A DNA stretch of 64,000 nucleotides from positions 744,001 to 808,000 of the forward strand of contig MU004197.1 of assembly GCA_010093605.1 (NCBI GenBank), written 5' to 3'. Position 1 is the stretch's first letter, and each line of letters opens with the position of its first letter. The position numbers and the translations under genes were made by a program. Positions 13,760 to 58,006 of this stretch are shown in pieces. Source of the stretch: Lophium mytilinum. Taxonomy: Eukaryota. The notes below the pieces were generated by a model. It was not told the DNA's origin, did no database searches, and saw only the letters and a program-made list of their open reading frames with translations.

Positions 13760-14280
13760 CCCGAAAAGATTGGGTTGGTCTTATACTAAGAAAAAAATAA
13801 GCAGCAAGATAGCCAAAGATATGTGGGTAATCCGGTACTTAAAACATCTCGAGGGGGGCCTTTTACTGGTTTGTGACTGGGAACATTTCGAGTCTTACAT
13901 GACTGCCAAATTCACTGCATTTTAGAGTAAGGGAAGTAGTGGATAATGGAACACCCGAAACTCAATCCTCGACCGAAATGGCAAAGCTAGGTGAAGACAA
14001 AGAAAAGCAGGAAGCGGTGAATGATCCGGATTGAGAAATTTTGGTAGGCGTGCCGGCCTTGAAACAATTTGGCAAGCAAAAAGTGTCTAGACCGCCGTTC
14101 TGTAATACCATATCTCTCTTACCATTCACGTCATGTACGACTATCATCGTTCCACGCCGTCGGGCGCATCCCGATGCATGTAGATAAGAGGAGAAAGCTC
14201 TCCCGCAGGCATGGTCATTGTGCTCAACGTCTCTCTATGCGTCAACTGTTCTCTCTTTTCAGTATCTGATATTATCCAGA

Positions 14281-15174: not shown

Positions 15175-15422
15175 TTCTGTTGAGGATAAGCGTTATAGTC
15201 ACACCATATATGTCAGGGGACCCTGTACGGATGGTGCTGTGGAACATAGGCGTGAACAAAGGGAACTCACTGAAACATTCAATTTGTAGTGCAATTCCCA
15301 TCGTACGATATAGTTGCATCATCCCGAAGCTGACACGTCCCGCCTGCATGATGACTGGGAAAGGATTCGTGAAGCATTGCAAATATTTGTCTACGTCGCT
15401 TTGCTGCTCGGCCCCAACCCTT

Positions 15423-17452: not shown

Positions 17453-17957
17453 TGCATTCCTTGGTCTTGGTGGTTCTGGGTGTCGTGAGATGAGGGGGCG
17501 GGGGAGGAGGGGGTCGTTCGGTGAGCAGGAGGTCGTTCGGTGAGCGAGCATGTGCATTGATCTTTAAGCAAGAGAGGGTGAAACAAGCTTTGGGGCGCCG
17601 TCGCGGGAGCGGTTAAAACGCCACCAACGGTCGCCTATCACGGGAGGCGCACGGATTATATGCATTGGTTGGCCCTTAGCTGCAGTGTCACGAAGAAGGC
17701 AGAGCCCACTATGGCTCGGCCTTCGCGGCTTCATAGATTTGTCTCTACGATGCGGCAGCCCTTTCCTTGACACTGTATCAGAATGTTTTTTGATGTATCC
17801 AAATCTACCTATTCATCCGCTTGAATTTGTTCTGAAATAGCTCAAACGGTCAACGTTCAAACGCTACGCGACTGGAATGCATCCCTTGCACTTAGGCTCC
17901 GCCACCTCTATCTAGCTTAAAACTCAACTGCCCGCTCCTCCATACTACTCCCAAATC

Positions 17958-19095
17958 CTAATGCATGATGATAGTTCTCTCTTCGTCCTCGGTTTTGCGA
18001 GATCGGTGGGATTGGTCGTTGTCTGAGCTCTGCGACTCAATCTTGACCATCCGATGAGAGTCCAATCGTGATTGTGGAAAAGACGAAGTAGTTGTCGTGC
18101 GTTTAGATAGCAACGACGAAAGCTGCGACTTATCCCAAACCCGAGCGACAACGGGCTTCAAGCAAACGAGACAGGCTGCGATGAGATATAGTCCTGGCTC
18201 GATGATGGAAAGGACGATAAGCCTTGTCGCAGTCCACGTGCCGTCCTTTGCGAAATCTCTGGTGAAGAAGCCGACGAATCGGATGATGGCTGTCACTACT
18301 CCACTGGAGGCATGTGTCAGTTTGTGATCATCCCTTATTGGAGAGGAAATACGGACATGGAACCTGTTGCAAAGGTGATTGCCAATCCTGCCTTTACGTT
18401 CCTTGAGACATGAAGCTTAAGAATGACAGGAACCGGTAGGCCCAGCATGATTAGGTCAGTCAGAATGTTCATTAACGAGCTCCATCGATACCAAGCATCG
18501 ATGTCGATACAGTGACCGCCTCCGGGAAGTTTCGGATTCCAAAGGTACTCCAAAGGGACGCAGATGACGAATGCTGGAACCATAGATCCGATGCAGTTCG
18601 CTACGATGAGGCCCGCCGTTATCCAGCAGACCACACGGTGAATGGGTTCGCTGAAGATTCGAAGATACAGGCAGAGGATGCTGAGTTTCGGCATGGCGAT
18701 GGCAGGGAGATACATGAGTGGAATGATGAAGGTGAACTTGGCCCATGTCTCTAGCTTCCAAGGCGTGTTCTTTGCTACGGCAACGACATGATAGCCTACT
18801 CCGCCCGCATAAACGTCGACTTAATAAAAGTCAGACCAGTGGTCGAGCAGATCCTTTTGAAGATGTCTACATTACCTAGACAAGCCGCAATGACAGCATA
18901 AGAGAAGATGGCGGCGGCTACGATGAAGGCATCGTCCCATCCCCAAGGAGCCCTTTTCATAGTTCGAGAGATGAAGCGCAGGCATACGAAAATGAAGTGA
19001 AGCACGATAAAAATTGAGGCGCAGACGATGACGCTGTCACCATTATACTCTGCTAGGTACTCGGGCGAGTAATGTGGCTCGGAACTGTTTTCCAT
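17958..19095 (-). CDS. PTH11-like / fungal rhodopsin-domain integral membrane protein, spliced
   Basis: FVCLRFISR, WGWDDAFI, KLSILCLYLRIF, CVPLEYLWNP, NILTDLIMLGLPVP, IIEPGLYLIAACL. Confidence 0.9.
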
Positions 19096-19435
19096 GTTAG
19101 TGATTATTCACCAATAGAAGGCCAGGAAAGGAAGGATGAAGCCTCAAGAGACGAAGACGAAGGCTGAATATGTGAGAAGGCGGCGCTGCTGACACCCGTG
19201 GCAAGGGAGCGGCGCCATGGAGGAATATACGAAGCGGGGGTGTCTCGAATGCATCCCAGCGGCATGTACTCCCTCAATTAATTTTGACTAGAATTGGGAT
19301 GTGTTGGTGTCACGGTGTTAGGCACCCAGTGTCAGGCACCCAGCTTGGTCGGGGCTCACGACCTCGGGACTTGATAAACCTCAACATCAAACTTAGAGTT
19401 CTCCTTCGACTCTCCACAACCTTTGAGCAACAATA

Positions 19436-21235
19436 ATGGCCGATAAATTGAGCCCCTGGCCATCTGCCCGTCACAGTCTTGTTGTCCATCATGTCGATCG
19501 AATCGCCAAAGACCACCCCGAAACTCCGTACGCCGAGTATCCGCGCTCGCCCACATCGTTCACCGAGGGCTTTCGCACAGTATCATACCGCGAACTTGGA
19601 AATGCAGTCAATGGCTTCGCCTGGTGGATCGAGGATCGTCTAGGTAAAGGCGATGCCTTCCCTACGTTGGTCTATCTTGGTCCCCACGATCTGCGCTTCA
19701 TCATCTTCGTTTTGGGGGCGGTCAAGGCGGGCTATAAGGTAAGCTTGCAGTTCCACAACATGCTCACTTTGCATAATCGGGCTCACTCACCGGCGTCCAG
19801 ATGCTCTTTCCGGCACCACGTTACAGTGCAGAGGCTATCTCGGCCTTAATAGTCCAACTCGACGGCAAAATCATGCTCACGCCTGCCAGCCGTCCAGCTA
19901 TCACGGACATGGTTCTAGCCAAACACGAAATGGAAGTCCACCAAGTTCCAGAATTGGATGAGCTCCTCGACCAGGTCCATCCCCATTACCCCTACGACAA
20001 GACATTTGAAGAAGCGCTCGCCGAGCCACTCGTGGCGGTGCATACCTCAGGCACAACTGGGTTTCCTAAACCGATCATTTGGACCCATGAGTGGGCCGAT
20101 AGCTTTGGCGCCGAACGATATTTGCAGCCGCCGGCCAACTTTGAATCCATGGACGGACATATCTTGGGGACACGTGTGTTCAGTCTGATGCCTACCTTCC
20201 ATGTAAGTCCCAGCCGCTGGGATACAAGCTGCGAGCTAACGTAGGGGACAGGCGTCACACTTGTTCGCAAGCATTTTCTTTTCAATCTATCGGGGTACGG
20301 TGTTAATCTACCCCTTGTCCGGCATGCCACCCTCGGCAGCCATGGTTGCAGATGCACTACGTTACACAAAGGCGGACGTTGTCGCACTACCGCCCCCTTA
20401 CTTGGAAGAGATGGGCGCCAATCCAGAGACGCTCCAACGGATCTCTGACCAAGTCGAATATGTCATGTGGGCCGGGGGCGACGTGTCTGTTGCAGCCGGG
20501 GACGCCGTAAACGCCAGGATGAAGCTCTTCACGACCTGCGGTTCCACCGAATGTGGACTGTGGCCCCTACTCGGGCCTGCCGTTTGGAACGCAGATCAAT
20601 GGCACTACATGCGATTCCATCCCGCGATGAACATGCGACTTGACCTCTCCTCGGAAGCCGAGGGCATCTACGAGGCCATCATCCAACGCAACGAAAATCA
20701 CAACGACACGTATGTGCAACCCATTTTCAGGCTCTTCCCCGACCTCGAGGAGTACGGAACTGGTGATCTCTTCCTTCGCCACCCTTCGGATTTGGATCTT
20801 TGGCGGTATCACGGCCGCGCCGATGATCTGCAAACATTCTCGCTCGGGGGGAAGTTCCATCCCACAGCGCTGGAGCAGCGCTTGACTCAGCATCCTGATG
20901 TGCACGAGGCTATGCTGGTAGGGACCGGGTTTCCACGAGCTGCTTTGCTCCTTCGTTTGAAAGAGAGCTGCTCAAGTGATGGTCTTACGAACGTTTGGCC
21001 GCTTATCGAAGAATCGAACAGGACGTGTCCGGCGTATGCCATAATCTTAAGGCAGCTTGTGTATTTGGTTGACCCAGACAAGCCTTTTCCAAGGACTGTC
21101 AAAGGGACCGTGCAGCGAAAAGTCACTGTCGAGTTGTATCTAGAAGAGCTGCAAAGATTATTCAAAGAGCCTAACGGAAAGTCCCTTGCACCGCCCTCGG
21201 CATTCTCGCTCCTCACAGAAAACAACAACAAATAA
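19436..21235 (+). CDS. Adenylate-forming enzyme of the NRPS-like (carboxylic acid reductase-type A domain) family, A domain only; 2 introns
   Basis: HTSGTTGFPKPI, GSTECG, YGTGDLF, YHGRADD, FPRTVKGTVQR; stops ~30 aa after the terminal Lys motif, with no T or R domain. Confidence 0.9.
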
Positions 21236-21503
21236 AGAGCTTTGGATCATCGGACTGAGCAAATTTGGAGGGGCTGTAGTTTGTGGATAAGTTTGCAGGC
21301 CTCTTAGTTGGATATTTCCGTAGAGTGAACGATCACTTCTTGTGCTCAAGGTAACAAATGAAGTCTATTGATTTCCAGCGTGCATTTATGTCGCCTTTAC
21401 ACAGAGTTCATCTCTTCCGAAAGTCGAACCAATACACCATTGAATCCACCATACCATCCCCGTTATCTACACCTATCCCGTGCTAGCAGCTGCACTCAGA
21501 GCC

Positions 21504-22196
21504 TCACAGCTGAGAAACCGGCCGCTTCGGCGGATGACTCTTCTCCCACTCCGCATGAAGCGCATTCGCCTTCTCCACCTTCTCCTTGATCTGCGCATAC
21601 AGAGCACAATACGGCTCGCCCGCCTTCAAAAGATCCGCCGGCCGACCGGTCGCAAAGTCGACGAACACAACCCAGCCCGCACACTCCGCCACAACAGCCT
21701 GCTGCCGCATCGACCAGATCGTCGTAGTAGTGAAGTAGCGATCCGACCGCATGTCGCTAAGCCGGTTCCCAACGAGCATCTAGATCCACGCGTTAGTGAA
21801 CGGCTCCTAGAACTATACGAACGCGGCGTGGCTTACTGAGTCCGGATACGCCGCCGGCCGCTTGAGATTGTACGTGTAGCCCTTCAGCACGGGGCCGATG
21901 GCCTTGCCGCGCAGCATGTCGGCGTACTTGTCGCCCATCACGGTGGAGAAGGACTCGAAGAGGCGCATGTTGGCCGTCGATGCGTACTTGGCGTAGATGG
22001 GGTTCGAGACGTGGTTGTTAGGGTCCTGGTCCGAGGACCAATCGATGGGTATCTCGGCCAGGGAGTCGTAGTCGTAGCCCATGTTGACGGCGGTGTCGAC
22101 GGCTTGGGTGCGCAGGGCGTCGTAGGGTGAGGGTGCGCAGGGGTGGTAGTTGGAGGAGGCTTCGAGGGGAGAGTCGAATTTGGTTTTGCCGGCCAT
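21504..22196 (-). CDS. HotDog-fold (4HBT-like) thioesterase; 1 intron (~21780-21835); C-terminal -SQL
   Basis: IDWSSDQDPNNHVSNPIY (D..xHVxN..Y motif), LKRPAAYPDS, WSMRQQAVVAE..VFVDFATGRP. Confidence 0.8.
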
Positions 22197-22699
22197 TGTG
22201 GTGAGGTTGATGGTGTTGATGATTTTGATGGTGTTGATGAAAAGAAGAGGGTGTAGGCGGGATACTGAAGAAGCTGGCTGGATAGATTGCTGGTGAGGAT
22301 GATGCTGTGCCTCTTCCCATAACCGAGCGGTTTGAGCATTAGCGTGTCGGTTAAAGCTGCAAGGCAGCCGTTGATCGACCGGCCGCTAGTCTAGTCGCAC
22401 GGAATCCCGGCAGCCATCCTTGTGACCGCTGAGCACCAGTGAAATCACCCCATTCGGGCCGAGGGCTTTATGCACTGGCACCACCAGTTTTCTGTGCAAC
22501 CTCCTAGCTTTACATGTGAATACACGCGTCAGGGTGGCTGAGTTGTCAATTCCCGCCGTCATTCTGCCCCAGTTCAGAAGTGAAGGAAAGGCGAATTGTT
22601 GAGATGATTATATTGCACGACGGCTACCAATATACACGTAGTTAATAGGCTGGTATAGAGGGGATTAGGACCAACCGTATTCAGCATTGCTAAACCACG

Positions 22700-24587
22700 A
22701 TGCTCGAACGTTCAACGGCCTCGAACTCGACCAAATCTCTAACCATGGCTGCCACGTCCACTTCCTTTGTCTTCATTCTTTCTCTAGCAATAGCTTTCTC
22801 ATTTCTCACGGTAAGCCTGTTTGCTCCATTTAGCTCAAAATATCTCTTTCTTCATACGAGCTAAGGGAAGATAGGTCCTCGGCATTTGTGCCTATCGACT
22901 ATGGTTCCACCCTCTCTCCAAATACCCCGGCCCTTTCTGGGGCAGCATCACCAATCTCCATGCCGCTTACCACTCGTGGAAAGGCGACTTGCATCTTGAT
23001 ATGTGGAGATGCCATGAGAAATATGGTTAGATGAACCACCCCCTACTCTTGCCATTGCTGAGTCATTTTCAAGGTGACCACGTACGTTACGGTCCCAATC
23101 GCCTCATATTCAACACTGCCGAGTCTATAAAAGGTAAGTCATGAAACCAACTTTTGCTTCCTCTAGTTCCGACATAGGCTGATCGATTACTTTAAGATAT
23201 TTACTCCTCTGGCAAGAATGTGCAAAAATGCAAAGGCTATTTGACCATGATGCATCGAGTCCCCAATACCATTACCCAACGCAATAAGGCTCTTCACGCA
23301 AAACAACGTCGACTCTTGAGTCACGGATTCTCCGACGCTGCACTCCGATCCTATGAGGAGACCATCGATCGCCACATCCAACGGCTTAGCGAGCAACTTG
23401 GCTCCAGTTGCTGCGAATCCGATGAGAGTTGGTCTTGCGTAAGGGATATGTCAAGATGGAGTAGGTAGATTGGAAGACTATAACAAGTATATAGGCGCTA
23501 ATCCAATCTAGCCGGGTACATTACTTTTGATATCATGCTAGACATCATTTACGGTCGTCGGAGTGAGATGGTCACCAAAGAAGACAACAGATATCTCCTT
23601 GAGGCCATCGAGAAATCCAACATCCGAGTTGGCGTTTTGATGCCGCTTTGGTATCTCAAAGGCAGCAGTATTGAGCGATATCTTTTCCCGAGCTCCATTG
23701 TGGCGCGTTACAAATTTCTTACCTTCGTCAAAGCTCTTCTCAAAACCAACGACGATGAAAGAAGTGAGTCTTCAGCGAGGAAGAGTGTATACTCGATCAT
23801 GAAGGGATCGGAAGATAAGGAGGGCCTCGGACCGAATGAGATTGCTGCGGAGTCAACGAACCTAATCGTAGCAGGTAGGTTCCCTTCACTACTTTTCACA
23901 TTTGTGCTTCTACTGACACGCCAGGGTCTAGGCTCCGACACAACCTCCACCGTTCTCGCCGCCGCCTTGTTCTACTTATCTCGGACTCCCACAGTATATG
24001 CGAAGGTAGCAGCCAAAATCCGGTCTTGCTTCCACCGCCCTATCGACCTCCAAAATCGCTCCCTCCTGCATTCATGTCTCTACCTCCGGGCTTGCATTGA
24101 AGAGAGCATGCGTATGGCGCCACCGATCGCATCCGCCCTTTTCCGCGAGGTGGAACCCAGTGGCGCCATGATCGACGGCCACTTCATCCCTGCCGGCGTC
24201 GACATCGGCACTTGCATTTACAGCGTCCATCACAACAGTCAGTACTTCACAGACCCCTTCCAATTTATGCCAGAGCGCTGGCTGCCACTGAAAGATGGGA
24301 GCAACAAGGAAGAGGTCCAAAGTGCTCATAGCGCCTTCATGCCTTTCTCGGTCGGTTCACGCAGCTGCATTGGCAAGGCGTTGGCTATGATGGAGCTCCA
24401 AAGCATCCTAGCCAATCTCCTATTCTTCTTTGACTTCCGCGTCGCTGAGGGTGACGTAGGTGCCATTGGTGAAGGGAGCAAAGACGCGGAGTGGGGAAGA
24501 CACCGGGAGGGTGAGTATCAGCTGTATGATCATCTCACAGCGATGAAGTATGGCCCTTTTCTACAGTTTCGTAAGCGTGCGCTGTAG
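22700..24587 (+). CDS. Cytochrome P450 monooxygenase, spliced (start at 22700 or 22745)
   Basis: N-terminal TM helix, [28 protein letters not shown]-helix split by an intron, EESMR (ExxR), [14 protein letters not shown] heme motif. Confidence 0.96.
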
Positions 24588-45577: not shown

Positions 45578-46116
45578 CGGTTGGCGGAGTTTGATGATTT
45601 GACTTTGTTTTAGCTTAGCTGCATTCTGCTATGGCGTTATATATCTAGGGCATTGGGGGCGGTTTAGCACCTTCAGGCGTTGATCGCTCTTGTACAAAGA
45701 TTGCACATCAGATTACCCGGACATTATTATCTCCTGATCGAGACTTGCAGATGTGAATGGCTCATTAATAAATTAGCCAGCTATGCCTTGAACCTCGGCG
45801 ATCTTAAGCTTTTATCCCCCTCAATTGCCGATCGAGAGTGTGTATACCCTTAGATCTTGCTGATTTGGCCTTGTATGTACAGCCTAGACTGTCGCCGGTT
45901 CTAGGCTTGTGCTGTCTCCCGTTTATTAAAATGCCTATTCGCGCGATTTGGCCCCCAACTAGCGAGGATCGGAAAAGACTAGCGGTATTGGCATATCGCT
46001 GTTTGGGATGGCACAACTCCAGGGAAATCCTTGCCAGTATTGATCTCCTCGTCCATCAAAAGTGATGGCTCAACTCTATTCTCCTTCTTCAACATAAGCT
46101 GGCATAAAGGTGCAAG

Positions 46117-48090
46117 ATGCTACTGGATCTGCCATTGGACCTTTTACTGGTGGTTCTCTCGAAGGTGAGCTTTCATATTCGCTCTTGAGCTATGACATGT
46201 CGTTGAATGGGATAGGTGACGAACCTAAGAGACCTGAAGAACCTATGCGAAGTTTCGAAAAGCCTCTATCCCCATGCTATTGAGCTCTTGTACAGGTCCG
46301 TCACTGTTAAGGCGGCGGATGAAAGGCACCTGCATGAAATCGATGTTTCTTCACTCTTGTTGGACCGCGACAAGCCGGAAGATGAAAACCTCCTTCGTTT
46401 TACAAAAGCCATTCATTTCACATCAACATTTCAGGATAAAAGATTTGAGCGGTGTGTCCACTTTGGTGGTCGTGAGGATTTTGAAGATATTCCCGCGCAT
46501 GGGGATATCCAGTTTGATCGCCTTGCTGAGACAGTCTTGTCTGTGCTGGAAAGATGCGTCGATGGAAACCTGCAGAGTTTCACGTAAGCTCCACTCTTCA
46601 TTTACGTTTTCTTAGCAACTAACAACTACCAAAAGCTGGGGCTTGGGCTGCTGCATCCCAAAAGGCATTTTGGGCTCTGATAGATACCTTGCACGGCATC
46701 AAAGTAGTATCGAATCTATACGCTTAATCATAGATGGCTCATGCTATGCCCTTTTTCTCGGCGAAGGTCCCGTGGGCCTTTCCGCTCTCAACAAACTGAA
46801 AAGTATTCACTTCACGGGACTACGGAACAAATACAATTTCAAAGCCGTCGGTGCGGCTATCCGGTTGAACTCGATGCACTTGAGAAAGCTCGAGTTGGAT
46901 CTCATCGCTACGGGCCTTATGTACGATAACAGCGACTACGGAGACAATTTTTTCGCAGACCATGTCCTCCGTGTGTCTCCGCATGAGAGGACGCGAATCT
47001 GTCAAACACTCGAAACACTTTCTTTGTCTGCGGTCGATTTCCAATTCGCTCAGGGGGCTATTGCGTGTGCTTTTGATCTTGGTTCTCTTACCTCGTTGAA
47101 GCTACGTTGGTGTCCGGGTTGGCAAGATTTCCTGCTCCACGCTGGTTTGGAGGGCCAACCGATTCGACTCAAATCGCTGGAAATCCAGTCGGACTCCGAA
47201 GCGGAGATGGCTTACACACACACGATGTATCTCTTCCTGGGAAGATTCGAGGGCCTGGAAGAACTCATCATCTCTACTGCTTCGCGCGGCGGGACATTGG
47301 CGATTTGGAACTCTCTACTCCACCACAAGTCCACACTTAAACGATTTTTCCATCGGCAAAGGGGCTGGGATAATGACGAAGAATGTGACTTCCCAGATCT
47401 TTCACTGAGTCCAAGTGAGATCGCCATGTTGACTGAACATCCATCGAAGAACCCCTTTTGCGATTTCGACTTGGAGTGTGTTGCCCTCGGGTGCGGGCCT
47501 GACATTACGGTATAGCCCACCTTATAGCCCTTTTCTTGAATCCAGGGATGGCTAATCCTCGTTACCGCAACTCATAGAAACTGCTGCTTTCCCCGCTCAC
47601 AACGAAGCGCTCTTTACAGGTCATACACATACGGCAGCCCGCCAAGGACCACCGCTCAGTAGGTCCCTGGCCCGGCTCTCGAAGCCTAGGACTACAACAA
47701 TCCACCGCCTCAGACCAAGATCTCTTTGAAGCAAGGCACGGCATATGCATGCACCAAGACGCCGCCTCCACCATCTCAGTCGATAGCGATCTCGGGCTCC
47801 CAAGGCGCGCAGACGCCCTCAGCGACTTCGCGCAGTGGGCATTCGGTCCCGTTGGCTTCCCAAGCCTCCGTATAATTGCTTTCGGGGACTTCTCTTACGG
47901 AACGCGGTTCTCGGATACTAATGTGCTTCTTTGCCGGAAGACCGAACGTGATCCGTCGGTTGAGGCAGATGGGGCTAGAGTGCTTTTCTGTCGACTGCGG
48001 CTGGATGATTGGGAGCTGGTGGAGCTGCTGGAGAGGTATGCTGGGGTTCTGGAAGCTTGTCCGGAGGAGAAGATTCCTAAGTACTCCTGA
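46117..48090 (+). CDS. F-box / LRR-like protein; 3 introns
   Basis: Exon 1 MLLDLPLDLLLVVLSK joined to VTNLRDLKNLCEVSKSLY (F-box); LRR-like LxxLxL segments; C-terminal FAQWAFGPVGFPSLRIIAFGDFSY. Confidence 0.8.
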
Positions 48091-48900
48091 TTTCACACGT
48101 GAAGTGGCGGGTTGGCGTCGATACATATTGGCGTTAAAGATGTGGAGAACTGGTATATAGTTATGGTGGTTTGAAAGACGAAATAGTGGGCTGAGGCTAC
48201 CGTCCCAAGTTAACAACTGGGGCAGTGATCAATGGCGTAAAAGAGAGTAGATATGGTTAAGTTCAAGAGCCAGAGTGTTCTTGCGACTGCTTCATGAAAT
48301 CCTCTTCTCGCTCGGACGATTAAAGATCCGACATGACTAAATCCTGGGAACGTCTTATTGTAGACATTTTTCACAGGAAAGAACCTGTTTTAGGAGTGGT
48401 AGTATAACTAAATACCGAAGAGTCTTTTAAAGATCAGCTAGAAGAGAAGATTTAGTCAAATTGATTGTAATTGCCGGGAAATAAGTTCAGCAATGAAGTT
48501 CTATTGAGATAGAGCGCTAAAAGCAAGTTTGGGATTCCCATGTTTATTTTGGTATCATATTCTATTGCTGGAACAATGTTGCGGGTCGTTGAAGGTTTTA
48601 AGAACTCGCTGCAGAGGTCAGTCACGAGCTGGTTGCTTGCGGCCAATGAGACTGGACCAAAAAGGTGCACGTGCCACTTATCTTGGCGCATCGTCAAGTT
48701 CACGCCTCATCACCGCAGCGGACGTCGTCATCTCCAACCTCCCACCACCACAACCGACGCTTCGAATAGTGCTTCCAAAACCCGAACCGACATATCCTCC
48801 CTCGTATCTCATCCTGAGAAACCGCTCCCGGCTCTACAACTGCGCAGACACCGTACCCGCCACTGGATCCTCCTCCAGGCATCCGATAAGCTCGCCCACC

Positions 48901-49382
48901 ATGAAGCCCGTTGTATCTGCCATGAATGCGTGGACATGGTACGCTCATGCCCCTTAGGAGCCAAGGAACCTGCTCTAACGCGCAAATAGCATTGTCGTGT
49001 CCATCTTTGCCATCGTTATCCTCTCTATCATCGGCGCGCTCTTCAAGGTACGCCGGTTCAGCTTCTTCATCTCCAGCTCGACCTCCCCTAGTACCGCTTG
49101 CTTGGGTCCGTAACTAACGGGTCTATCAGACGAACAACCACACAATGATGGGCTCAACCAAGGATCCCGAGGATGGCAGTGCCGTTGCCGCGGCTGTGTT
49201 CGGGGCGGTAGCTATATACGCGGTATGCCAGACTCTTCTAGCCTATCCCAACTTTCACCACCGAGAGAAGGGTTGAACCAACGGACGCTAATACGACAAT
49301 ACAGGCATTCGTCATATTCTGCGGCAGTCAGGCGTGGCTACACATGCGCGAGAGCCGGCGGGGCGCCATATCTCTGTCATGA
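48901..49382 (+). CDS. RNASEK-like small two-TM protein (V-ATPase subunit f homolog); 3 introns
   Basis: Spliced product MKPVVSAMNAWTCIVVSIFAIVILSIIGALFKTNNHTMMGSTKDPEDGSAVAAAVFGAVAIYAAFVIFCGSQAWLHMRESRRGAISLS. Confidence 0.85.
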
Positions 49383-50106
49383 TCGAATCCAATCCACCAC
49401 GACCCTCATAACTCATACACCGAAAACCCAAATACCAATGAGTCTGCCAGAGCTCTAGCTTTAGGATACGGAACGGCGTTGATGGCGCCCGCGGGATTGT
49501 AGATATCTTCAATGCAGACGACTTCCGGGTCACGCGCATGAGTTTTGCTTTTTAGCGGCTTTCGTTAAGTGAACAAACCTATTTACATCTACATCATGTC
49601 ATTTGTCTCTATAATTATAAAAGAATACTACATGCGAGAATAGTTCGAGACAGTACTTTCGTCATCCAACCTTGCAGGGGATCCGCTCATGGCTGATGGT
49701 CAACTCTGCTAGCTGCATTATTTTGATGGACGGCTGATCAATTGCGCTTTATGTTTCGTATTGCCAAAGACATGCACGCAACGAATGGCTCTTGCACTCG
49801 GATCCTTGAACATATTGATACATAAATTATAGCTTCAGAGATTTACCCCGAGAATTCTAGGATGGTCCTGGACCGCCTTGTTCGAACGTACGCCGAGCAG
49901 AGACCTTGTGTATGGCGGCGGGACAGCGCGGCCTACACAGTTGCCACGGCAATTGCGATGGCTATCAAAGCCTCCCACAAGGACTACCTTTTGGTGAACC
50001 TGCTCCACAATCCTGGATTTGATTGCTAACGATCATTGCAGTGCTCCGTATATATTTGAGCTGCATTACACCAGATAGCGCTAAGCAACAAAGCTCATCG
50101 CTTACG

Positions 50107-51096
50107 CTATAGATTCGAGTCCTCGTCCAGCGGAAGACCGTGCCCTCCCTCCGACTTCGGCTTATGATTTGGATTCTCATAACCAAAATACTCAAAGTAC
50201 TGATCAGCAGCTGGGTGTTGCTTGATGCCTGGCTTGTCACCCTCGGGCAGCTGCATAACTTTGACGTATTTGTCCATATCGATGGTATTCGCCTTCCGCC
50301 AGTCGGTAAACTTGTCAAAGGCAACGCACTTTTTGTTGATCGACATGTCCGGGAAGGGATACTCCTGCGTCTCTACCCAGTGCAACGGAATGAGATCGAG
50401 GTTTGCGTTGCATTGGATCCCCTGCAGCAAGATGTCGATGCAGTGGTTGATATGGATCTCGCGCTGCTTGATCGTATGGGCCCTGGCCATGCTCAGGTTG
50501 TAGTAGTTCCCATATGCGACGTGCCGCAGGGAGTTCAGGCAATGCACCTGGTGGAAGGCGTCGAAGATGGCGGCGTAGGCGTCGTCCCCCAAGCCCCACA
50601 CTGCGTTCTCCAGCTTGGCCACTGTTGACGGGTCCGTTCCCATCTTTCGGAGCTCGTCGCGAGTGACGGGGTATACACGGGTCAACTCCCATTCGTCCCA
50701 GATGGCATCAGCTTCGGGGTTGGGTTGCTGCCGTGCGATAGAACCACCCTCTTTCGGCCTGTAGAACGTCCCGTTGATCTTCTTGAGTGTCGGATCGAGG
50801 TCGAATCTGTCGAGGACCGGGCTATACGGGGCCACCCGGCGATAGTCGGCGTTGAGTAGGTTGTGGGTTCGATTGTAGAACCATGTTGCAAACAGCGTGA
50901 TTGAGAGGAGTAGTAAGCATGCGTTCACGACCGTCAAGAGTACCAAGACCCTGCGACTTTGTTTCGTTCGGCCCTCATCTCGAGCCGGAGCACCATTCAG
51001 GAAGCCTTTTGTTTCGTCGTCGTCTGGCTCGGATGAGGAGTCGCGGTTCTCGCCCGACGCCAATGGCTTGTATTGGAACTTGGGGATGAAACTCAT
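50107..51096 (-). CDS. DUF3328 / UstYa-family oxidase, single exon
   Basis: N-terminal TM anchor (VLVLLTVVNACLLLLSITLFATWFY), two HxxHC motifs (FHQVHCLNSLR, HINHCIDILLQGIQCNAN), PFPDMSINKKC. Confidence 0.95.
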   Translation of the reverse strand: MSFIPKFQYKPLASGENRDSSSEPDDDETKGFLNGAPARDEGRTKQSRRVLVLLTVVNACLLLLSITLFATWFYNRTHNLLNADYRRVAPYSPVLDRFDLDPTLKKINGTFYRPKEGGSIARQQPNPEADAIWDEWELTRVYPVTRDELRKMGTDPSTVAKLENAVWGLGDDAYAAIFDAFHQVHCLNSLRHVAYGNYYNLSMARAHTIKQREIHINHCIDILLQGIQCNANLDLIPLHWVETQEYPFPDMSINKKCVAFDKFTDWRKANTIDMDKYVKVMQLPEGDKPGIKQHPAADQYFEYFGYENPNHKPKSEGGHGLPLDEDSNL

Positions 51097-52027
51097 CTTG
51101 GAGCGTGAAGGGCAAGACCGGTCGTCAGATTAGGAGCAAAATCTGGGCTAACGTGGTACATACAGCAGCCGACCAACTTCCGGGTTATCGGGTACTTGCT
51201 GGCGTTGACGTCAACCGCATTCGCATTGTCGCGAGGGTGGCCTGATGGTGGATATGCAGAGGCACTACTACCTTCCCCGAAGGGAATGCGCTGCAATCCA
51301 GCACCATTTGAACGCAATCATCATACATCAGCACTTGAGCCGATGAAGTCTTCAACCCCGCAGTAGCCTGTAAGAGGTTCTAGATGCGAGGACTACAATT
51401 GGCCATGGAAGTGTCCGGAATACGGCTTCAATTATCTAACAAGCGAGCATTTGTGAGCTGGATGTACGAACCGTACAATTCGTGAGTAGTCTTATGGGCA
51501 TGACTAACATTTGAAAGCCAGACATTGACCTCTGAACACTCATGCTCAGGCAAATAGTTCTCATCGAGCACGTAATCTTCAACAAGCAAACCGTCTTCAA
51601 CGACCAAACTGTCCTCGCAATCCCCGGCTACCCTCGGAGAATAAGATGGGACTGTGATTGGTGTATCTGGAATGCAGATTAGCTGCGTATAAGCCCCCAC
51701 CACTATACAACACTCACCCCGGGATAACGCCTTCCTTGGCAGCGCGAATAGGCAAGCGATTGACGTACAGATAAGCGTTGGTCCGTCCGCGGCCAATCCC
51801 TTGTTTGAAGCTTGGTTGGTTGCGGTCCGCGGTAAGAGCGTCCTGCCTGATTAGGCGAATGTCGACACGATCTTAGGAGGCAACTCGGTGCTATTGTTTG
51901 GGGCAATAGCGGCGCGCGATGTAACCTGTTCACGATAACGCCTTTGCCAAGAGGGATTGGGAATAATAGTGCAATGTCTTGGAATGGGTTCGTAATGCCA
52001 AGGTTCACCAGTGTTATGTCTTTGTGA

Positions 52028-52033
52028 TATAAA
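52028..52033 (+). promoter_or_regulatory. TATA box upstream of the small secreted peptide gene
   Basis: TATAAA ~100 nt before the ATG at 52129, followed by a C/A-rich 5' leader. Confidence 0.55.
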
Positions 52034-52128
52034 GGCCTCGCATTCGGCCACCTAGAGTCTCCATCCATCCAGCCTATAACTATCTCAACTCAACCAACAA
52101 CCCTCAACCACCAACTACATCCTTCAAG

Positions 52129-52326
52129 ATGCGTTTTACCAGCATTGCCTTCGCCCTCACGGCGTTCCTCTCCGCCTTCGTGGCTGCTGCTCCCACCACC
52201 AACGACATCACCAAGCGCCTCCCTACTCCTGAGGAGTTCGAGGCTCTTGCCCCAGCGGAGAAGAGGAAGGTCTACACTTCCTGGTACCGCGCTACCAACA
52301 TCCTCCCCACCTCGGATGACGTTTAG
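52129..52326 (+). CDS. 65-aa secreted peptide with two Kex2 (KR) sites; candidate RiPP precursor
   Basis: MRFTSIAFALTAFLSAFVAA (signal-like) / APTTNDITKR / LPTPEEFEALAPAEKR / KVYTSWYRATNILPTSDDV; CAAGATG start context, strong C-ending codon bias, upstream TATA. Confidence 0.85.
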   Translation: MRFTSIAFALTAFLSAFVAAAPTTNDITKRLPTPEEFEALAPAEKRKVYTSWYRATNILPTSDDV

Positions 52327-52874
52327 ATAGTCAAATGTAAGCTCAATTATATAACTCTTATATTGTTGGTGCATATACTCACATATCAACAGCTGACCAG
52401 GAGTGGTGCCAATGCGCGTTGCCGCCTTCGCGAGAACTCATCGAGGTCACTGTGGGATCGTTGTCTGAGCGTTGTGTGGACCGCACGCTCTTTTCAAGAA
52501 AGAAATCGTAGTACCGATCCGCTTCGCGGCATTCTACATAGCTATGCATACCCAGCTATAATGCACCTTCAAACTATGCCTACTCTTGAACGCGTGCCGA
52601 ATGTGTCTTGTGACTGGGTCTGGCATGTCTCATCCCTCCTCTACAACACTATGACATAAGCCCGGGCACTTCTTTTGACTGCTCAGGGTACTCGAATAGG
52701 CTTTTAGACTCCTAAATATGATGTGAAGGCCAACTCAGTGAGAACCAAACCACCTTTTTTTAACGAAACCGAAAACTACGCGGGGCACCCCTCGCAGCGG
52801 TATCGAGCGAGCAAGAGTGGAGTCCGAGGAGTATGAAGTACGTGTGCCCAAACTTGTGGCCTATGACTGCACAA

Positions 52875-54384
52875 TCAATCACTCTTACCAAGCACCTCCT
52901 CGGCGCTCCTCCCCGTGAACTCCTCACAATGCAACGCCCAGTCATTTGGCAGCACAACCCAATTCGCCTTCTCCTTGAGAAAGATATGGCTCCCAATCTC
53001 CGGTAATTTGCACCTCAGACTTGCCTCATCGATACTCCCCATGCTCACGCTCGTTTCCTCCGGGTCTGCCTTGTAGACCATGAACAGAGGTGTGCCACAG
53101 GCATTACAGAATCGGCGCTCTGCGGCCTTGTGGAGATTGAGGGTTTGCAAGGTGATTGGTACTTGTGAAGAGCTTGATTCAGGGGGGTGGGTGGTGATGA
53201 TGAGGGCGGAGGTGGGGATCTGGGCCCAGGGGATGAAGCCGGAGCCGGAGAGTTGGCGACAGGCGGCGCAGTAGCAACAACATGCAGCTGTAGGGGCAGT
53301 GGTGCTAGTGTATGTAATGCTGCCGCAACGGCAGCCCCCCGAGAAGGCTATTTCGGAGTGGGTAAGCAGGGCTTTGGAATCTGGTTTTGTTTCTATCGAC
53401 ACAAGATAGTCAGCTTTGATGGGAGATCATGAAGATAAGCTGACGGTCTAAAGAAGGTGGCTTCACTGTCCCATCTTGGAAAACCTGGAACGACCTTTCT
53501 GGTGCTATCAATCATCACTAACCTTCAACCTTCTTCCCAATGCCCAAAAACACCGTATCCACCTCCTCTACCCATCCATCTACTGCCTGCTTCTCCCACT
53601 CCTCTTTGAAGACCCTCTTAGCCTCCGCCCTCACCTCCTCACTCTCCCTAAACCCCTTGCAAATCTCCTTATCAATCCCCTCCTCAAACAACTTATCCGC
53701 CTCCTCAACCTTGTACTTCTTATCCCCCTGCCCGCACTGATTCTCCACAACCACCATCTCCTGCACCTCAACCCCACACTTCCGCATCACCTCCTCCAGC
53801 GACTTCGGCCCCTTAACCCACATCCGATGATACAGCGTGAACGCGCCTAGCCTCCTCGCCGTCTTCTCCACCGTCCCACTATACGCCAGGTTCTGCGGAT
53901 GCGTGACATCCAACGCCACGAACCCGCCCGGCTTCAAATACCGCACCCAATGCCCCAACGCCGCGACCGGATCCTGGAAAAGCACAAACATGCTAGCACC
54001 CGTGATGCCATCGAATCCCCCCTTCATCCCCGCTAGCTCCTTGATCCCGTCGAGGTCAAGCACGTCGTGCTCGAATAACTCCACTTGCGGGTACTTTTCT
54101 TTGTCTGCGGCAAGTTTCTCCCGCGCGACGGCGAGCATGCCCGGCGTGACATCTACGCCTACGACGCGCCCGCTGGGGCCGACGGCGGCGGCGAGTTGGT
54201 AGGTGAGTAGGCCGGTGCCGCAGGCTAGATCGAGGATCTTGAGACCTGGGGAGAGGTGGGGGGAGATGTGGGAGATGAAGCGGGCGGTGAAGGAGGGGTG
54301 GTGGGATGAGTCGTAGACGGGGGCGCGGGGTGTGTAGAGGCGGATTGCAGAGGCGGATTGGGGTTCTGGGGTGGGGTCTGCCAT
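52875..54384 (-). CDS. Class I SAM methyltransferase probably fused by splicing to a GFA/Mss4-like (CENP-V) zinc domain
   Basis: MT: ILDLACGTG, GVDVTPGML, YLKPGG. GFA: GGCRCGSITY, CYCAACRQLSG, RRFCNACGTPL. The GFA ORF has no ATG; a predicted intron 53522-53393 (GTTAGT..GCTGAC..TAG) joins the two in frame. Confidence 0.8.
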
Positions 54385-55519
54385 GATGGCGTGGTCGGGT
54401 TGGATTTGGGGGAAGAGTGAGAGAGAGTGACGAAGAGGAACACGACTGGTAGGATGCGAATGTGAAGAAATTGGGGAAGCTTGATCAAATTCTTAGGATT
54501 ATGAGAGTTGAAGAGAAGAAGAAACTTTGTTTAGACAGTAGCTACAGGTAACGGGTTTGAAGGGTGTAATGATGGAATGGCCACTGCGGGGTGATGGGAT
54601 GTGCTCTTGAATTAGCGAATGAAGTGTGATGAGTAATTTCACGATAGCTTAGTCGGGTTGCTTGATCCGGCAAGCCTGTGGTGACTCTTCTCAAGCTGAA
54701 GGTTGATGAGATGCAGGGCGGCAGGGCTCATCAACCGATGACGTGGGCGTCTATCTGCGCGGGGGAGGGCAGGAGAGACAGCCACGAAAGTTGCCGTCTT
54801 AGAGTACTTAGCAGCTCTTGATGTGTCCTTTCAAATGCGAATGTCCTCTCGTTGTCGATGCTGACGAAGGCGAAGCCCGATATTCCGACGTTGAAGAGAG
54901 AGGTAATGGAGCTCGTCTACCAATCAGCGGAGAGTAGCGTCCCCACGGAGAGGACGTTATCTTAACCTCGGAATATGCACGCATCTAAACAGCAACATTC
55001 CACTGTCGAAGACTGTTACCTACAGTACTAGTTCACAAGTCTGGGCACATGGACTTATTGCTCCTTGCCTTGAATTTTGCTCACTGGACACTACCTACTG
55101 TAGAGGGCGGCGTGGCAACTCAGTAGAATAGCCAGTCAGCAAGTAGTCGCAAGAAGTGTCCCAAGTTAGGTCTTGATACTGCATACCAATTGGTACAAAG
55201 GCTAGGTACATTCAAACTGTAATAATACCCGTGAAATCCTTGGCTTTTGTTGCATCGAAGCTGGTGGGGCTGAGCTCGCCAAGTTCTGGGGCCTCGTCTC
55301 ATCACTTCAACTTCCGAATCTCCTACACCATTCTCTGTGTTACAACAGCTTGCGAAACCTTTGCTCACGCTTGCGTCTTTACTGAATAGGAAGCCGTTCC
55401 ATTAGAGAAGACGTTTTGGTTACCGAATGCGGCGCAGTCTTTGTCACTTCCAGACAGGATAGATATCTTCCTTCTCCAGTATGCCTTGTATTCGATAAGA
55501 TAGGTAGTCGGTATTCAGA

Positions 55520-55750
55520 GTTTGGGTTATCAGTTTGAGCACCCGGATATCTCACTAGCTAGGCTTTCAGTTTGCTCCCTTGATACCACTGTCAGGAGTA
55601 CCTCAGCACGTTTTAAATCTCCAAATTGGGAATTAGACTTCCATTTTGACAATGCTGACAACTGTCCAGGGCACCCCTCACAGCAGCACCAAGCAAGCAA
55701 AAGTGGAGCCCGAGGAGTGCGATATCCAGTGCCTAAACTTACAAACCAAG
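55520..55750. mobile_element. Old degenerate MITE-like element with ~60-bp imperfect terminal inverted repeats; related solo end at ~43025-43090
   Basis: Left AGTTTGAGCACCCGGATATCTCAC..TTTGCTCCCTTG; right (reverse complement) AGTTTAGGCACTGGATATCGCAC..TTTGCTTGCTTG; at 43038 AGTTTGGGCACCGGATATCTTAC..TTTGCTCCCTTG. Confidence 0.55.
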
Positions 55751-55767
55751 CAGTGTTTGCCCTTCCA

Positions 55768-56016
55768 TCACCCCTCCCCCAAATTCCCCCATACCCCCTC
55801 CCACCTTCGTATCCTCTCCTCCACCTCCATCACCGTCTTCTCCATCTCATCAACCTCTTTCAAATGCCGCCACCTCTCTTCTATCCCCAACCACCACCGA
55901 TCCCCCTCTCGGAGCTCGCGCAGCCGCCGCTCCGCATCCTGCTTTTCTTCGCGCAGAGACTCGAGGTGTATGTTCACGCGGTCGCACAGAATGCTAGGGT
56001 AGTGGTAGTGCGGCAT
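55768..56016 (-). CDS. Small charged coiled-coil hypothetical protein
   Basis: ATG-initiated 82-aa ORF (MPHYHYP..EEKQDAERRLRELRE..); no recognisable family. Confidence 0.35.
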   Translation of the reverse strand: MPHYHYPSILCDRVNIHLESLREEKQDAERRLRELREGDRWWLGIEERWRHLKEVDEMEKTVMEVEERIRRWEGVWGNLGEG

Positions 56017-56508
56017 TCGGGCAAGCGAGAGGCAGACGAGGGGTATGCGAGGGTTTAGAGTTGGGTTCAGGTTAGAATGGCGTAGACTAGGTATTATAGA
56101 TTGAATCGTGTAGGTGGAATTATATGTTTGTGATAAGTTTATATTTGCAGGCAACGCTTAAGGCGCTCGGTAGGCAGGCTTGGGTTTAGAATAGCTTGTT
56201 ATATAGGTATATACTTAGACCTATCCCACAACGCTGTTCTATTAGCACGTCGACATCTAGTGCGACCAAACGTGGTAGCCTGCCACGATGGCGTGAATAC
56301 TGCTTCTTAGTGACGGCGTGGTAGTCAATAGCAGCACGCTTCGTGACGTTGCTGTGCCTGTTTGTAACTAGGCCTCTAATTTCTCCTACGGCCTCTCGCC
56401 ATTCGCCGCCCAAATCCAAGTGCTATCCTCCCTGGCAGCGCACTCGATATATGCAGAATTAATGTACAAGTTTTCGTAAGTCGTCCGAAGCAGCAGAACT
56501 CCACTTGC

Positions 56509-58006
56509 TCAAAACCTATTTTCCAGATTAGTGACTATTCTCGCAAGATCCAGCTCCGGAACCCAGCTTACCGTATCTCATAATTACCCGCCCGTGTCAT
56601 ATACCTCACCCACTTGACACTACTATAATTACTCTTCTCAAACACCTTCAGATACCGCACCAACAACCCCGAGCTCGTGAACATGAGCAAACTAAAGCTG
56701 AGCCCCAGCGGCGGCCGGCTCCATGCTTTTTGGTTCGTCATACTCGTCAGCGTCGCCTCGGCACTCAGCACAAACTCGCTCTGCCCCGTGAACCGCGGAA
56801 TCTTCCACACAATGTTGTTGTGCTCTGGTTCGTACTTCGCCTTTCCTTGAGACGTGCGCTCTGTGATCCGCGCGGTGTTGAGGGGCGTCGGGATGCGTAC
56901 GACGACGTTTGTGGCAAAAAGTTTGCTGCCGTAGTTTGCGCGGATGGCGATGCTATACTCCACTTTCGTTTTCCCGACCTCGTTGACGATAGCGTGGACT
57001 TTGAAAGGCAGGTTCACGTTCTCTGTAGCTCGGTATCGCATCAGCTCGAACTCGCCGTCCGGTGGTACGAAGCTGATGATCCTGTCCGTGTCGAACTTGC
57101 CCAGCTTCACGCATTGGTGGAACTGGCAGTCCTCCAGCGTGACGCTCCCTGCAGCGGCCCGTGTCGCCTTTGTTCCTGCGCGGTTACCGGAAGGCTGGTG
57201 CAGATTATCTTCGCCTAGCGTGAGACGGTCATTGAGCCCGAATTTGCACTCAGGGGTGCCGGAGAGGTATGCGCGCATAACGATCTGGCCGTTTACGTCG
57301 GCGCGGAGAACGGTGCCGGTGGCGGACATGAGGAGGTTTACGTCTTCGATCACGTCGACGAAGGCTTCGTTTTTGCGGTATTTGATGTCGTTTCTGCGCC
57401 AGGAGAGGGCGCCGGTTGCTTGCATGGTGATTTTGGAGGAGTCCTCCTGAGGTTGTGTTAGCGACCGATTTTACTTCGAAATGCTCCATCAATTCAGGGC
57501 CGTTTTGTACCATCGCTCTTTCCGACTTGACGCCTTCCGTTGTGATATACATCTTCAGAGTATCCGTTTCGGTGTTTTGTGGATATCCAAAGTCGAGGAT
57601 TTCTAATCGCAGATATGATCAGTACGAGAACACCAGCAGTTAGAGACCCCAAGTTGAACAGTATCATACCATCCAGCAGCTCATACACAAGCACAAAGTT
57701 GTTCTTCACAGCCTCCTCGTCGAACTTCCCAAAGTAAGCCTTCCCCAACCCCACCAGCCGGTACAGGAACTCGAAGACGAGCGCGGCATTGGCATTGCTC
57801 TTGGTGACAGCGACTAGGTAGATATTTTCGTGTTTCACATGGCTGAAGGTCGTTGAGCCCAGGGTCAGAATAGGTGAGCGAACTTGGGCATTCGAGATGA
57901 CCTGGATGCGGAAGACGTCGGCGAGGCGTGGGCGGCAGTCGTTTCGGAATGCGCGGAAAATGAGGTTCTCGCCCTTCTGATTGAATATGAGAATACCGGA
58001 GAGCAT
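56509..58006 (-). CDS. APM4: AP-2 adaptor complex subunit mu; 3 introns
   Basis: MLSGILIFNQKGENLIFRAFR, VKNNFVLVYELLDE, QATGALSWRR, LSGTPECKFGLND, FHQCVKL, FVPPDGEFELM, VKWVRYMT; last exon F-stop at 56509. Confidence 0.96.

Follow-up and report, generated by a model that had tools for sequence, protein, structure and literature searches.

The fungal peptides asperipin-2a, ustiloxin, and phomopsin are the closest described counterparts of the system considered here, a pair of divergent genes in Lophium mytilinum that encode an oxidase of the UstYa/DUF3328 family and a 65-aa peptide precursor, and that probably make a modified peptide. The pair lies in a stretch of 64,000 nucleotides (positions 744,001 to 808,000 of the forward strand of contig MU004197.1, assembly GCA_010093605.1), which we call the window and from whose first letter all positions are counted. 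Asperipin-2a has been described as having the core FYYTGY, with ethers from tyrosine to β-carbons that need aprY, and phomopsin as containing an ether between tyrosine and isoleucine (PMC6514808). Such macrocycles, closed between a tyrosine oxygen and a β-carbon in ustiloxin and phomopsin, provide the precedent chemistry for our locus (PMC6514808). As for the enzymes, CctR is described as a membrane-anchored, dimeric DUF3328 protein that depends on copper and O2 and whose HxxHC(x)nHxxHC motif binds two coppers, and the same source reports a like dependence for the reconstituted cyclase AprY and the halogenase ApnU (PMC12435403). We consider it likely, although by no means settled, that the Lophium locus is a two-gene unit for a peptide made by ribosomes and modified after translation (RiPP) of the ustiloxin/asperipin (dikaritin) type, in which a copper oxidase would modify a tyrosine-centered core that Kex2 would then release.

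Compared with the asperipin-2a cluster of Aspergillus flavus (aprA, aprY, aprR, and aprT), the locus shows the same combination of a single DUF3328 gene, which is essential in that cluster, with a signal peptide, Kex2-type sites, and an aromatic core. However, it has neither the reductase nor the transporter (a Pfam scan of every open reading frame (ORF) from 36 to 64 kb with a length of 110 aa or more gave nothing like aprR or aprT), and its core has about 13 residues instead of 6 and is present in one copy (one to four in its family). With the ustiloxin and phomopsin clusters (ustA/UstYa/UstYb/UstQ and phomA/PhomY/PhomQ/PhomM) it shares the enzyme family and the logic of a signal peptide, KR sites, and a tyrosine-containing core, but in those clusters there are further genes, for a tyrosinase, a methyltransferase, several DUF3328 paralogs, peptidases, and a regulator, and their precursors have many repeats (UstA is described as cut into 16 peptides; PMC6514808), whereas the Lophium unit consists of two genes.

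A broader frame of comparison is offered by the Kex2-processed repeat proteins (KEPs) of fungi (Umemura 2020, Le Marquer 2019). According to PMC7329392, a DUF3328 gene is found in the vicinity of 22% of KEP genes but almost never near those of the mating-factor type, and hundreds of loci combining a KEP with DUF3328 have already been predicted; thus, the Lophium pair, which follows the same logic, adds one more case to a type of pathway already described. Several multi-core relatives of its precursor (L005, P0142, P0146, and P0148) have the architecture of KEPs, and the DUF3328 neighbor matches the 22% subclass that was proposed to be cyclized. By contrast, the window gene itself and 21 of the 27 family proteins carry a single core, against the at least three repeats called for in Umemura's screen (PMC7329392); the published screens require repeats (PMC7329392, PMC9632046), and the expectation of the initial annotation of this DNA, made from its letters alone, that mining based on repeats would miss the gene has thus held up. 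The motifs WYRATN, YTAWYR, YQAWYR, and YTSWYR did not occur in the literature searched. WYRATN, AWYRAT, SWYRAT, and YRATNI were not found in the supplementary tables of Umemura, nor the first three in those of Le Marquer, although the former search is a weak one because Table S2 gives accessions and not sequences. The KEPs that Umemura's tables give for its strain do not include OAG17306, the family member from Alternaria alternata, and Lophium and Mytilinidion are absent from Table S2. Finally, a 2025 study of lichen fungi (Lecanoromycetes) describes predicted UstY-type RiPP clans without a repeated precursor and raises a single core as a possibility (PMC12048977), which is as far as the literature searched goes on single-core dikaritin precursors. 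These clans resemble our locus in that a DUF3328 gene stands beside genes with a signal peptide and Kex2 sites but no repeats; the difference is that the Lophium single-core gene is tied to multi-core homologs and keeps its adjacency across orders, so that the precursor can be identified with confidence.

A transcribed precursor gene beside a full-length oxidase gene

The 65-aa ORF is a real, transcribed gene, and purifying selection acts on the peptide that it encodes. The elements that the initial annotation had recognized in it are all present, namely a signal peptide (by inspection), a KR site at residues 29-30 and another at 45-46, the acidic spacer LPTPEEFEALAPAE, and a tail with tyrosine and tryptophan, and the head-to-head arrangement at about 1 kb from the UstYa gene corresponds to 1,032 bp between the two start codons. 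The N-terminus, judged by inspection only, consists of MR, then about 18 mostly hydrophobic or small residues, and then an AAA-P junction; 14 homologs keep this hydrophobic pattern and the AAP junction. Further along the precursor, alignment A1 shows no variation at R30, P32, T33, P34, E35, or F37, and conservation of 90% or more at K29, K45, and R46. The PTPEEF segment is not universal, since it is missing in the distant subfamilies P0146, P0148, P0150, and P0155.

Transcription was read from run X1, which is labeled 'RNA? (a guess)' and which we used only for what its contigs bridge. Across window positions 46000-58000, these contigs skip 12 intervals, and because the skipped intervals have GT..AG or CT..AC ends, the contigs represent spliced RNA. 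One of them, with a length of 6,122 nt, extends from the UstYa gene across the intergenic region and the peptide gene and also takes in the gene for a methyltransferase-GFA fusion that follows, and an RNA contig spans 49304-51463 unspliced, across the UstYa gene. An intron that these contigs reveal between the two start codons is most simply the 5′-untranslated region (UTR) intron of the peptide transcript, which thus probably has a long spliced 5′ UTR, and in the spliced plus-strand sequence, the 65-aa peptide is the sole ORF longer than 46 aa. A second intron lies 3′ of the TAG, so the stop codon stays in the mRNA and the product has 65 aa instead of the 100 aa that the deposited model gives; most homologs are 65-67 aa long and have the same end point. 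The ORF is 100% identical to BU16DRAFT_622015. The deposited peptide model (P0001, 100 aa) splices around the stop that the RNA contig retains, and the models of Mytilinidion (178 aa for UstYa and 73 aa, 'partial', for the peptide) show the same annotation faults as those of Lophium. At the DNA level, the 1,032 bp between the genes have no similarity to the metagenome loci described below.

Pairwise dN/dS values for the peptide range from 0.16 to 0.40 (0.16, 0.37, and 0.22 against the metagenome loci L001, L002, and L007, respectively), in comparisons in which dS is about 1 and thus near saturation. The peptides of L002 and L004 differ by four non-synonymous changes and one synonymous change, which are too few to interpret.

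The enzyme encoded on the other side looks competent, to judge from its sequence, with a full-length domain, invariant motifs, and a predicted transmembrane helix. PF11807, the Pfam model named after UstYa, matches the 329-aa protein with E=4.6e-49 and 167.7 bits (cut-off 25), and the alignment spans HMM positions 2-220 of 220 and protein residues 43-270, so that the match is a full-length one. The two HxxHC motifs, which the initial annotation had already located in this gene, are HQVHC at 182-186 and HINHC at 215-219, with a spacing of n=28. All 29 aligned homologs have the motif residues H182, H185, C186, H215, H218, and C219 unchanged, and likewise C229, C257, and H311, which makes cysteines 186, 219, 229, and 257 the invariant ones; the copper- and O2-dependent activity of the DUF3328 family is ascribed to a disulfide-linked homodimer. 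Orthologs have 322-329 aa and 64-84% identity. The deposited UstYa model P0139 (178 aa) begins at Met152 and looks truncated, as it has no transmembrane helix and half of the domain is gone.

An AlphaFold2 model of moderate confidence (mean pLDDT 67.8, with values below 50 for residues 1-8 and 10-43) places helices at 48-78, 182-194, and 206-229, and the two motifs map to two of these. The model had no match in the PDB by Foldseek (E<=0.001), and a sequence profile found none either (E<=1). As far as the model goes, the protein would resemble CctR, ApnU, and AprY in its disordered N-terminus, single transmembrane helix, and lumenal helical domain with the motif on two adjacent helices, and would differ from them in the 59-residue C-terminal tail of the Lophium clade with its invariant N310-H311. 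This tail, residues 271-329 (window 50107-50283), lies outside the Pfam domain, is modeled with pLDDT 63-86, and has the consensus AADQYYEYWGYDNPNHK...GGHGLP.D.DSNL; its residues D298, P309, N310, H311, and D326 are invariant even in Sordariomycete and Leotiomycete homologs of 46-56% identity. The invariant histidine could be an additional metal or substrate contact. Among the 109 UstYa homologs listed, none bears the name of a characterized enzyme.

Conserved linkage of the two genes

Wherever the arrangement could be read in a named species, the peptide gene is next to the UstYa gene, in six of six cases (the window and five others) from two orders of Dothideomycete fungi. Adjacency was taken from consecutive locus tags or accessions. 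For instance, the pair is KAF2811132/KAF2811133 in Mytilinidion resinicola, while in Pyrenophora tritici-repentis it appears as PtrSN002B_010988/010989, as PTRG_08637/08636, and as eight consecutive accession pairs from other isolates. In Alternaria, it is found as GT037_007184/007185 in A. burnsii, AA0112_g11222/g11223 in A. arborescens, and AG0111_0g9433/0g9432 in A. gaisen; in A. alternata, both genes are on one 5.66-Mb contig. The metagenome contig L006 also carries the pair head-to-head, 644 bp apart, so that the linkage on which the initial annotation had made its case depend is seen in five further named species and this contig. Five further pairs of peptide and UstYa clusters share a longest contig of equal length (12,498; 171,057; 67,935; 40,353; and 2,797), which is a hint only and not proof. 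A link of the pair to the Ptr ToxC locus of P. tritici-repentis was rejected: ToxC1 is KAF7575752, on chromosome 2, and the pair in the same isolate is KAF7573369/KAF7573370.

Two other observations extend the linkage. L002, L003, and L004, three near-identical contigs that we counted as one lineage, have a UstYa remnant 390 bp upstream of an intact peptide ORF, which confirms ancestral linkage. Moreover, the window lacks counterparts of the flanking genes in L002 (for an ornithine decarboxylase and a pitrilysin-type protease); the pair thus moves together as a unit and is more than a piece of a chromosome segment that has stayed frozen. The last 54 residues of the remnant are 72% identical to the window UstYa, and the remnant could reflect recent decay or a tail retained for some reason.

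The linked enzymes also form a phylogenetic group. In a maximum-likelihood tree of 41 UstYa homologs, all eight rows linked to a peptide fall within one clade of 23 rows with support 98/97, in which the enzymes associated with the Ile-type cores of Alternaria and those associated with EFxxW-type cores each have their own subclade. One Sordariomycete protein, P0039 (Cytospora schulzeri VMCG_10043), is 71% identical to the window UstYa and sister to the Dothideomycete clade with support 100/100, while the other homolog of C. schulzeri, VMCG_05731, falls outside that clade; horizontal transfer of P0039 is possible.

The peptide family and its core

We found 26 relatives of the 65-aa peptide, 14 of which came from a word-indexed search. 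An exhaustive profile search gave 17 matches, 15 of them family clusters, and a metagenome scan gave nine loci, of which seven (L001-L007) are genuine; L008 and L009 are spurious and not family members. We also set aside P0149 (579 aa) and P0157 (1117 aa), which match the profile with E=2e-13 and 2e-4 but are repeat proteins in which an FPTPE-type motif recurs. The repeat of these two long and unrelated proteins, which the motif (M/L)PTPEEFxxL of the pro-region resembles, gives weak, sub-threshold Pfam matches such as HhH-GPD, and this likeness probably explains the spurious JGI label '3-methyladenine DNA glycosylase' on some 66-aa peptides (P0008, P0136, and P0165). A derivation of the pro-region from the enzyme, suggested by a weak tblastn resemblance to UstYa residues 114-142 (E=0.92), was rejected, the profile-profile probability being 1.2%. 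The family spans wood saprobes and crop pathogens, including Pyrenophora tritici-repentis and the Alternaria alternata complex.

The 36 core units of the 27 family proteins follow the pattern [Y27/F9]-x-x-[W32/I4]-Y-R-A-T-N-I-[L17/I16]-[P24/G10]-x-[S/T]-D-[D/E]. Given that the units were extracted with a pattern requiring YR[AS]TN, the invariance of those columns, including that of Tyr53, is built in, and only the other core columns are informative. Position 49 is tyrosine in 27 units and phenylalanine in nine, position 52 is tryptophan in 32 and isoleucine in four, and isoleucine occupies position +5 in all 36; Arg is found at -7 in 30 units and Lys at -8 in 25, while a few distant members have AR-K or GER in place of KR (ARK in P0150, P0153, and P0155). 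The dibasic site and the aromatic core are conserved, and the core, [Y/F]xx[W/I]YRATNI[L/I][P/G], has about 13 residues and stands behind a dibasic site. An earlier proposal of a Tyr/Trp cross-link within VYTSWY is borne out only in part: the aromatic residues are conserved, but the unit is longer, continuing through YRATNI[L/I][P/G], and the isoleucine that Alternaria has at the tryptophan position means that tryptophan cannot be an obligatory cross-link partner.

A single core is found in 21 of the 27 proteins, two in three of them, and three in another three, numbers in which short or mis-modeled entries may under-count the cores. The locus L005 contains four copies of KVYQAWYRATNILPA with acidic spacers that end in EKR, P0142 (from Byssothecium circinans), P0146, and P0148 have three cores, and P0003, P0151, and L006 have two. 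The proteins of the Alternaria alternata complex have two clear copies and a degenerate one of the variant AYKAIYRATNII. Among the four L005 copies, there are no amino-acid differences, while 7-11 of 42 nucleotides differ, all synonymously, which indicates selection on the peptide sequence of each copy. With its one core, the window gene lies below a tandem-repeat threshold of at least three, which relatives reach. We had at first, in the initial annotation, taken this precursor to represent a distinct, non-repetitive class, a notion that does not survive the finding of two to four tandem cores with KR spacers in L005, L006, P0003, P0142, P0146, P0148, and P0151. Judged by the sequences of these relatives, the Lophium gene is the one-copy form of a family of Kex2 repeat precursors with one to four cores.

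Proposed pathway and alternative explanations

For the two-gene RiPP unit, we propose that the 65-aa precursor would enter the endoplasmic reticulum via its signal peptide and would there be acted on by the neighboring UstYa, by homology a type-II membrane protein with a lumenal HxxHC(x)28HxxHC site. The enzyme would oxidize the core [Y/F]xx[W/I]YRATNI at the invariant Tyr53, most likely forming an aryl-alkyl ether macrocycle between the phenol of this residue and a β-carbon; as a guess, the partner might be the always-aromatic position 49, four residues upstream, which would give a five-residue ring. Hydroxylation, desaturation, and halogenation, all known for the DUF3328 family, are alternative reactions. 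Kex2 would then cut in the Golgi after K45R46 and, in the relatives, also after each KR spacer, and exopeptidases would trim the ends before the peptide is secreted. In all this, it is the localization, the type of reaction, the cross-link partners, and the final length that we infer.

Several points weigh against such a unit. Every chemical step in the proposal is a deduction from genes and sequences alone, and the core of about 13 residues is much longer and more conserved than the cores of 4-6 residues found in ustiloxin, asperipin, and phomopsin. Moreover, only a single aromatic position is fixed, as 9 of the 36 units have Phe in place of Tyr and 4 have Ile in place of Trp. No gene for a transporter, a peptidase, a tyrosinase, a reductase, or a second DUF3328 protein lies near the pair, and the RNA contigs give no expression level, transcript ends, or co-regulation. 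As to the linkage, the adjacency count leaves out L001, L005, and L007, which are short contigs, as well as Byssothecium circinans and Pyrenophora seminiperda, in which the peptide was seen alone, while among the matches listed, the UstYa ortholog stands alone in Melanomma, Neocucurbitaria, Clathrospora, Ascochyta, Paraphaeosphaeria, and Epicoccum, where the small gene may be merely unannotated. Finally, what is left of the enzyme in L002-L004 is residues 246-329 only, with an in-frame stop and a frameshift, and an intact peptide beside a decayed UstYa means that the peptide can outlast the enzyme, for some time at least.

The last of these points is also in favor of the main alternative, in which the product is an unmodified linear KEP with a role as a signal or antimicrobial, UstYa acts on some other substrate, and the pair is kept together by a shared divergent promoter or by inherited synteny. 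A long and almost frozen core would suit receptor recognition of a linear epitope (YRATNI is found in 36 of 36 units, partly by construction of the pattern, and the isoleucine at +5 in all of them), KEPs have been described as unmodified secreted peptides (PMC7099791, PMC7329392), and other tailoring or export genes are lacking nearby. Nevertheless, the pair is adjacent in all six testable named species, from two orders, and the flanks in L002 are different, while the linked enzymes all belong to one clade that tracks the type of core. KEPs of the mating-factor type, moreover, are nearly all without DUF3328 neighbors in the data that PMC7329392 reports for them. Both HxxHC motifs and the 59-residue additional tail are strictly conserved, which shows that the enzyme is under selection at this position. 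We therefore regard the linear peptide as somewhat unlikely, although it is the alternative to be taken most seriously.

The version of the proposal put forward in the initial annotation differs from the two-gene RiPP unit in that it combined the non-repetitive class and the Tyr/Trp cross-link in VYTSWY with tailoring by the methyltransferase, as a three-gene island. The three genes are indeed neighbors in the window, the peptide, UstYa, and methyltransferase-GFA genes are on one contig in Mytilinidion, and single-core forms dominate the family, with 21 of 27 proteins. However, the relatives with two to four cores, the Trp-to-Ile exchange in Alternaria, and the Tyr49-to-Phe exchange in 9 of 36 units contradict its first two parts. 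The third fares no better. Among the matches listed (the best 120 of 189), the methyltransferase-GFA gene and the UstYa ortholog are on different contigs in five of five species outside Mytilinidiaceae (Neocucurbitaria cava, Ascochyta rabiei, A. lentis, Neodidymelliopsis sp., and Clathrospora elynae), and the methyltransferase gene is thus a bystander and not part of the unit. It had no match on any of the seven family loci L001-L007, and it was not found in the 10 kb downstream of the L002 peptide gene or in the shorter downstream stretches of L001, L003, and L004. Taken as a whole, the three-gene version is highly improbable. A role of the 65-aa product as an intact small secreted protein or effector that Kex2 does not process is hardly credible: the product is small, with an N-terminus like a signal peptide, and some distant members do lack a clean KR (ARK in P0150, P0153, and P0155), but it lacks cysteines and is not of a length predicted to form a fold, and its relatives duplicate the core alone, always behind dibasic sites.

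Features of the locus and its surroundings

The coordinates of the two genes, their parts, and the adjoining gene are collected in Table 1.

Table 1. Features of the peptide/UstYa locus and of related sequences (window positions unless a metagenome contig is named)
Feature	Position	Strand	Remarks
UstYa/DUF3328-family oxidase gene	50107-51096	-	single-exon ORF, 329 aa
UstYa N-terminus	residues 1-47		disordered, presumably cytosolic
UstYa transmembrane helix	residues 48-78		predicted
UstYa lumenal domain	residues 79-329		predicted; contains both motifs and the conserved C-terminal tail 271-329
Intergenic region	51097-52128		1,032 bp between both start codons, divergent
Intergenic intron	51464-51517	+	RNA contig joint 51463/51518, GT..AG; donor GTACGA, branch GACTAAC, acceptor CAG
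Peptide precursor ORF	52129-52326	+	65 aa, divergent from UstYa gene
Signal peptide, residues 1-21	52129-52191	+	MRFTSIAFALTAFLSAFVAAA; cleavage after AAA run, predicted by eye
Pro-region, residues 22-46	52192-52266	+	PTTNDITKR / LPTPEEFEALAPAEKR; dibasic Kex2-type sites K29R30 and K45R46
Single core, residues 47-65	52267-52326	+	KVYTSWYRATNILPTSDDV; includes stop TAG 52324-52326
Core segment with aromatic residues			VYTSWYRATNILP
Precursor stretch with PTPEEF pro-region and core			LPTPEEFEALAPAEKRKVYTSWYRATNILPTSDDV
3′-UTR intron	52337-52392	+	10 nt past stop; joint 52336/52393, GT..AG; donor GTAAGC, branch TACTCAC, acceptor CAG
Methyltransferase-GFA fusion gene	52875-54384	-	459 aa, METHYLTRANSFERASE; convergent with peptide gene
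Methyltransferase-GFA exons	exon 1 54384-53523, intron 53522-53393, exon 2 53392-52875	-	intron joint in RNA contigs
UstYa pseudogene remnant	L002:9361-9611, L003:5552-5802, L004:9361-9611		

The methyltransferase gene next to the pair, correctly seen as such from the start, encodes a 459-aa fusion whose intron is confirmed by RNA. The ORF at 53518-54384 on the minus strand (288 aa) corresponds to exon 1, which matches Methyltransf_25 and related Pfam models and is 100% identical to the deposited 459-aa L. mytilinum model P0180, while exon 2 matches GFA with E=2.2e-20. UstM and PhomM, with which this protein invites comparison, are methyltransferases. The gene is widespread in Pleosporales (189 matches at E<=1e-30). 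The methyltransferase with its CENP-V/GFA part is conserved at 45-52% identity across many genera of that order, and metagenomes commonly contain shorter versions, of about 280-300 aa, that lack the GFA domain.

Pfam matches of the neighbors agree with the earlier description of an island among housekeeping genes. Between 29 and 64 kb, the surroundings include genes for SNZ, transportin, an M24 aminopeptidase, a GPI ethanolamine-phosphate transferase, the mu subunit of an AP complex, a succinyl-CoA ligase, and ELP3. The nearest neighbors of the pair are the methyltransferase-GFA gene and a small gene at 48645-49460 on the plus strand, convergent with UstYa. This small gene has three RNA-confirmed introns (48938-48988, 49046-49127, and 49222-49303), and its product has two hydrophobic segments near the C-terminus, as in a protein with two transmembrane segments. 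The window also holds a separate polyketide gene cluster at 5010-24584, 25-45 kb from the UstYa pair and with housekeeping genes in between. It contains a highly reducing polyketide synthase at 5010-12847 on the minus strand, with matches to KS, AT, DH, MT, ER, KR, and ACP, and, near it, an FSH1 serine hydrolase (14473-15171), a PTH11-like protein with a 'fungal rhodopsin domain' (17961-18820), an AMP-binding enzyme (19777-21232), and a P450 (23502-24584).

Significance

The Lophium gene is best described as a single-copy member of a new family of Kex2 repeat precursors with a conserved DUF3328 partner, and the points of interest are the long core, which is strongly conserved across two orders, the layout of only two genes, and the presence of the family in important plant pathogens. 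It provides a concrete and testable single-core precursor for a UstYa/DUF3328 enzyme, and a minimal unit of two genes is convenient for the study of how DUF3328 enzymes, a family now known to depend on copper, recognize their substrates. In Pyrenophora tritici-repentis and the Alternaria alternata complex, which are major plant pathogens, the small gene of the family is often mis-modeled, and elsewhere it may be unannotated.

A bolder extension of the two-gene RiPP unit concerns the role of its product. A long core held almost unchanged across Mytilinidiales and Pleosporales, with copies kept identical purely by selection on the protein, might represent a DUF3328-modified endogenous signal of about 13-19 residues with a co-evolving receptor, of the hormone, quorum, or development type, and not a fast-diversifying toxin. 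We regard this as a rather unlikely and speculative possibility. If it were true, the product would be the first fungal signaling peptide modified by a DUF3328 enzyme and by far the largest product of the dikaritin type, and most members of such families would be single-core genes that current mining and annotation miss.

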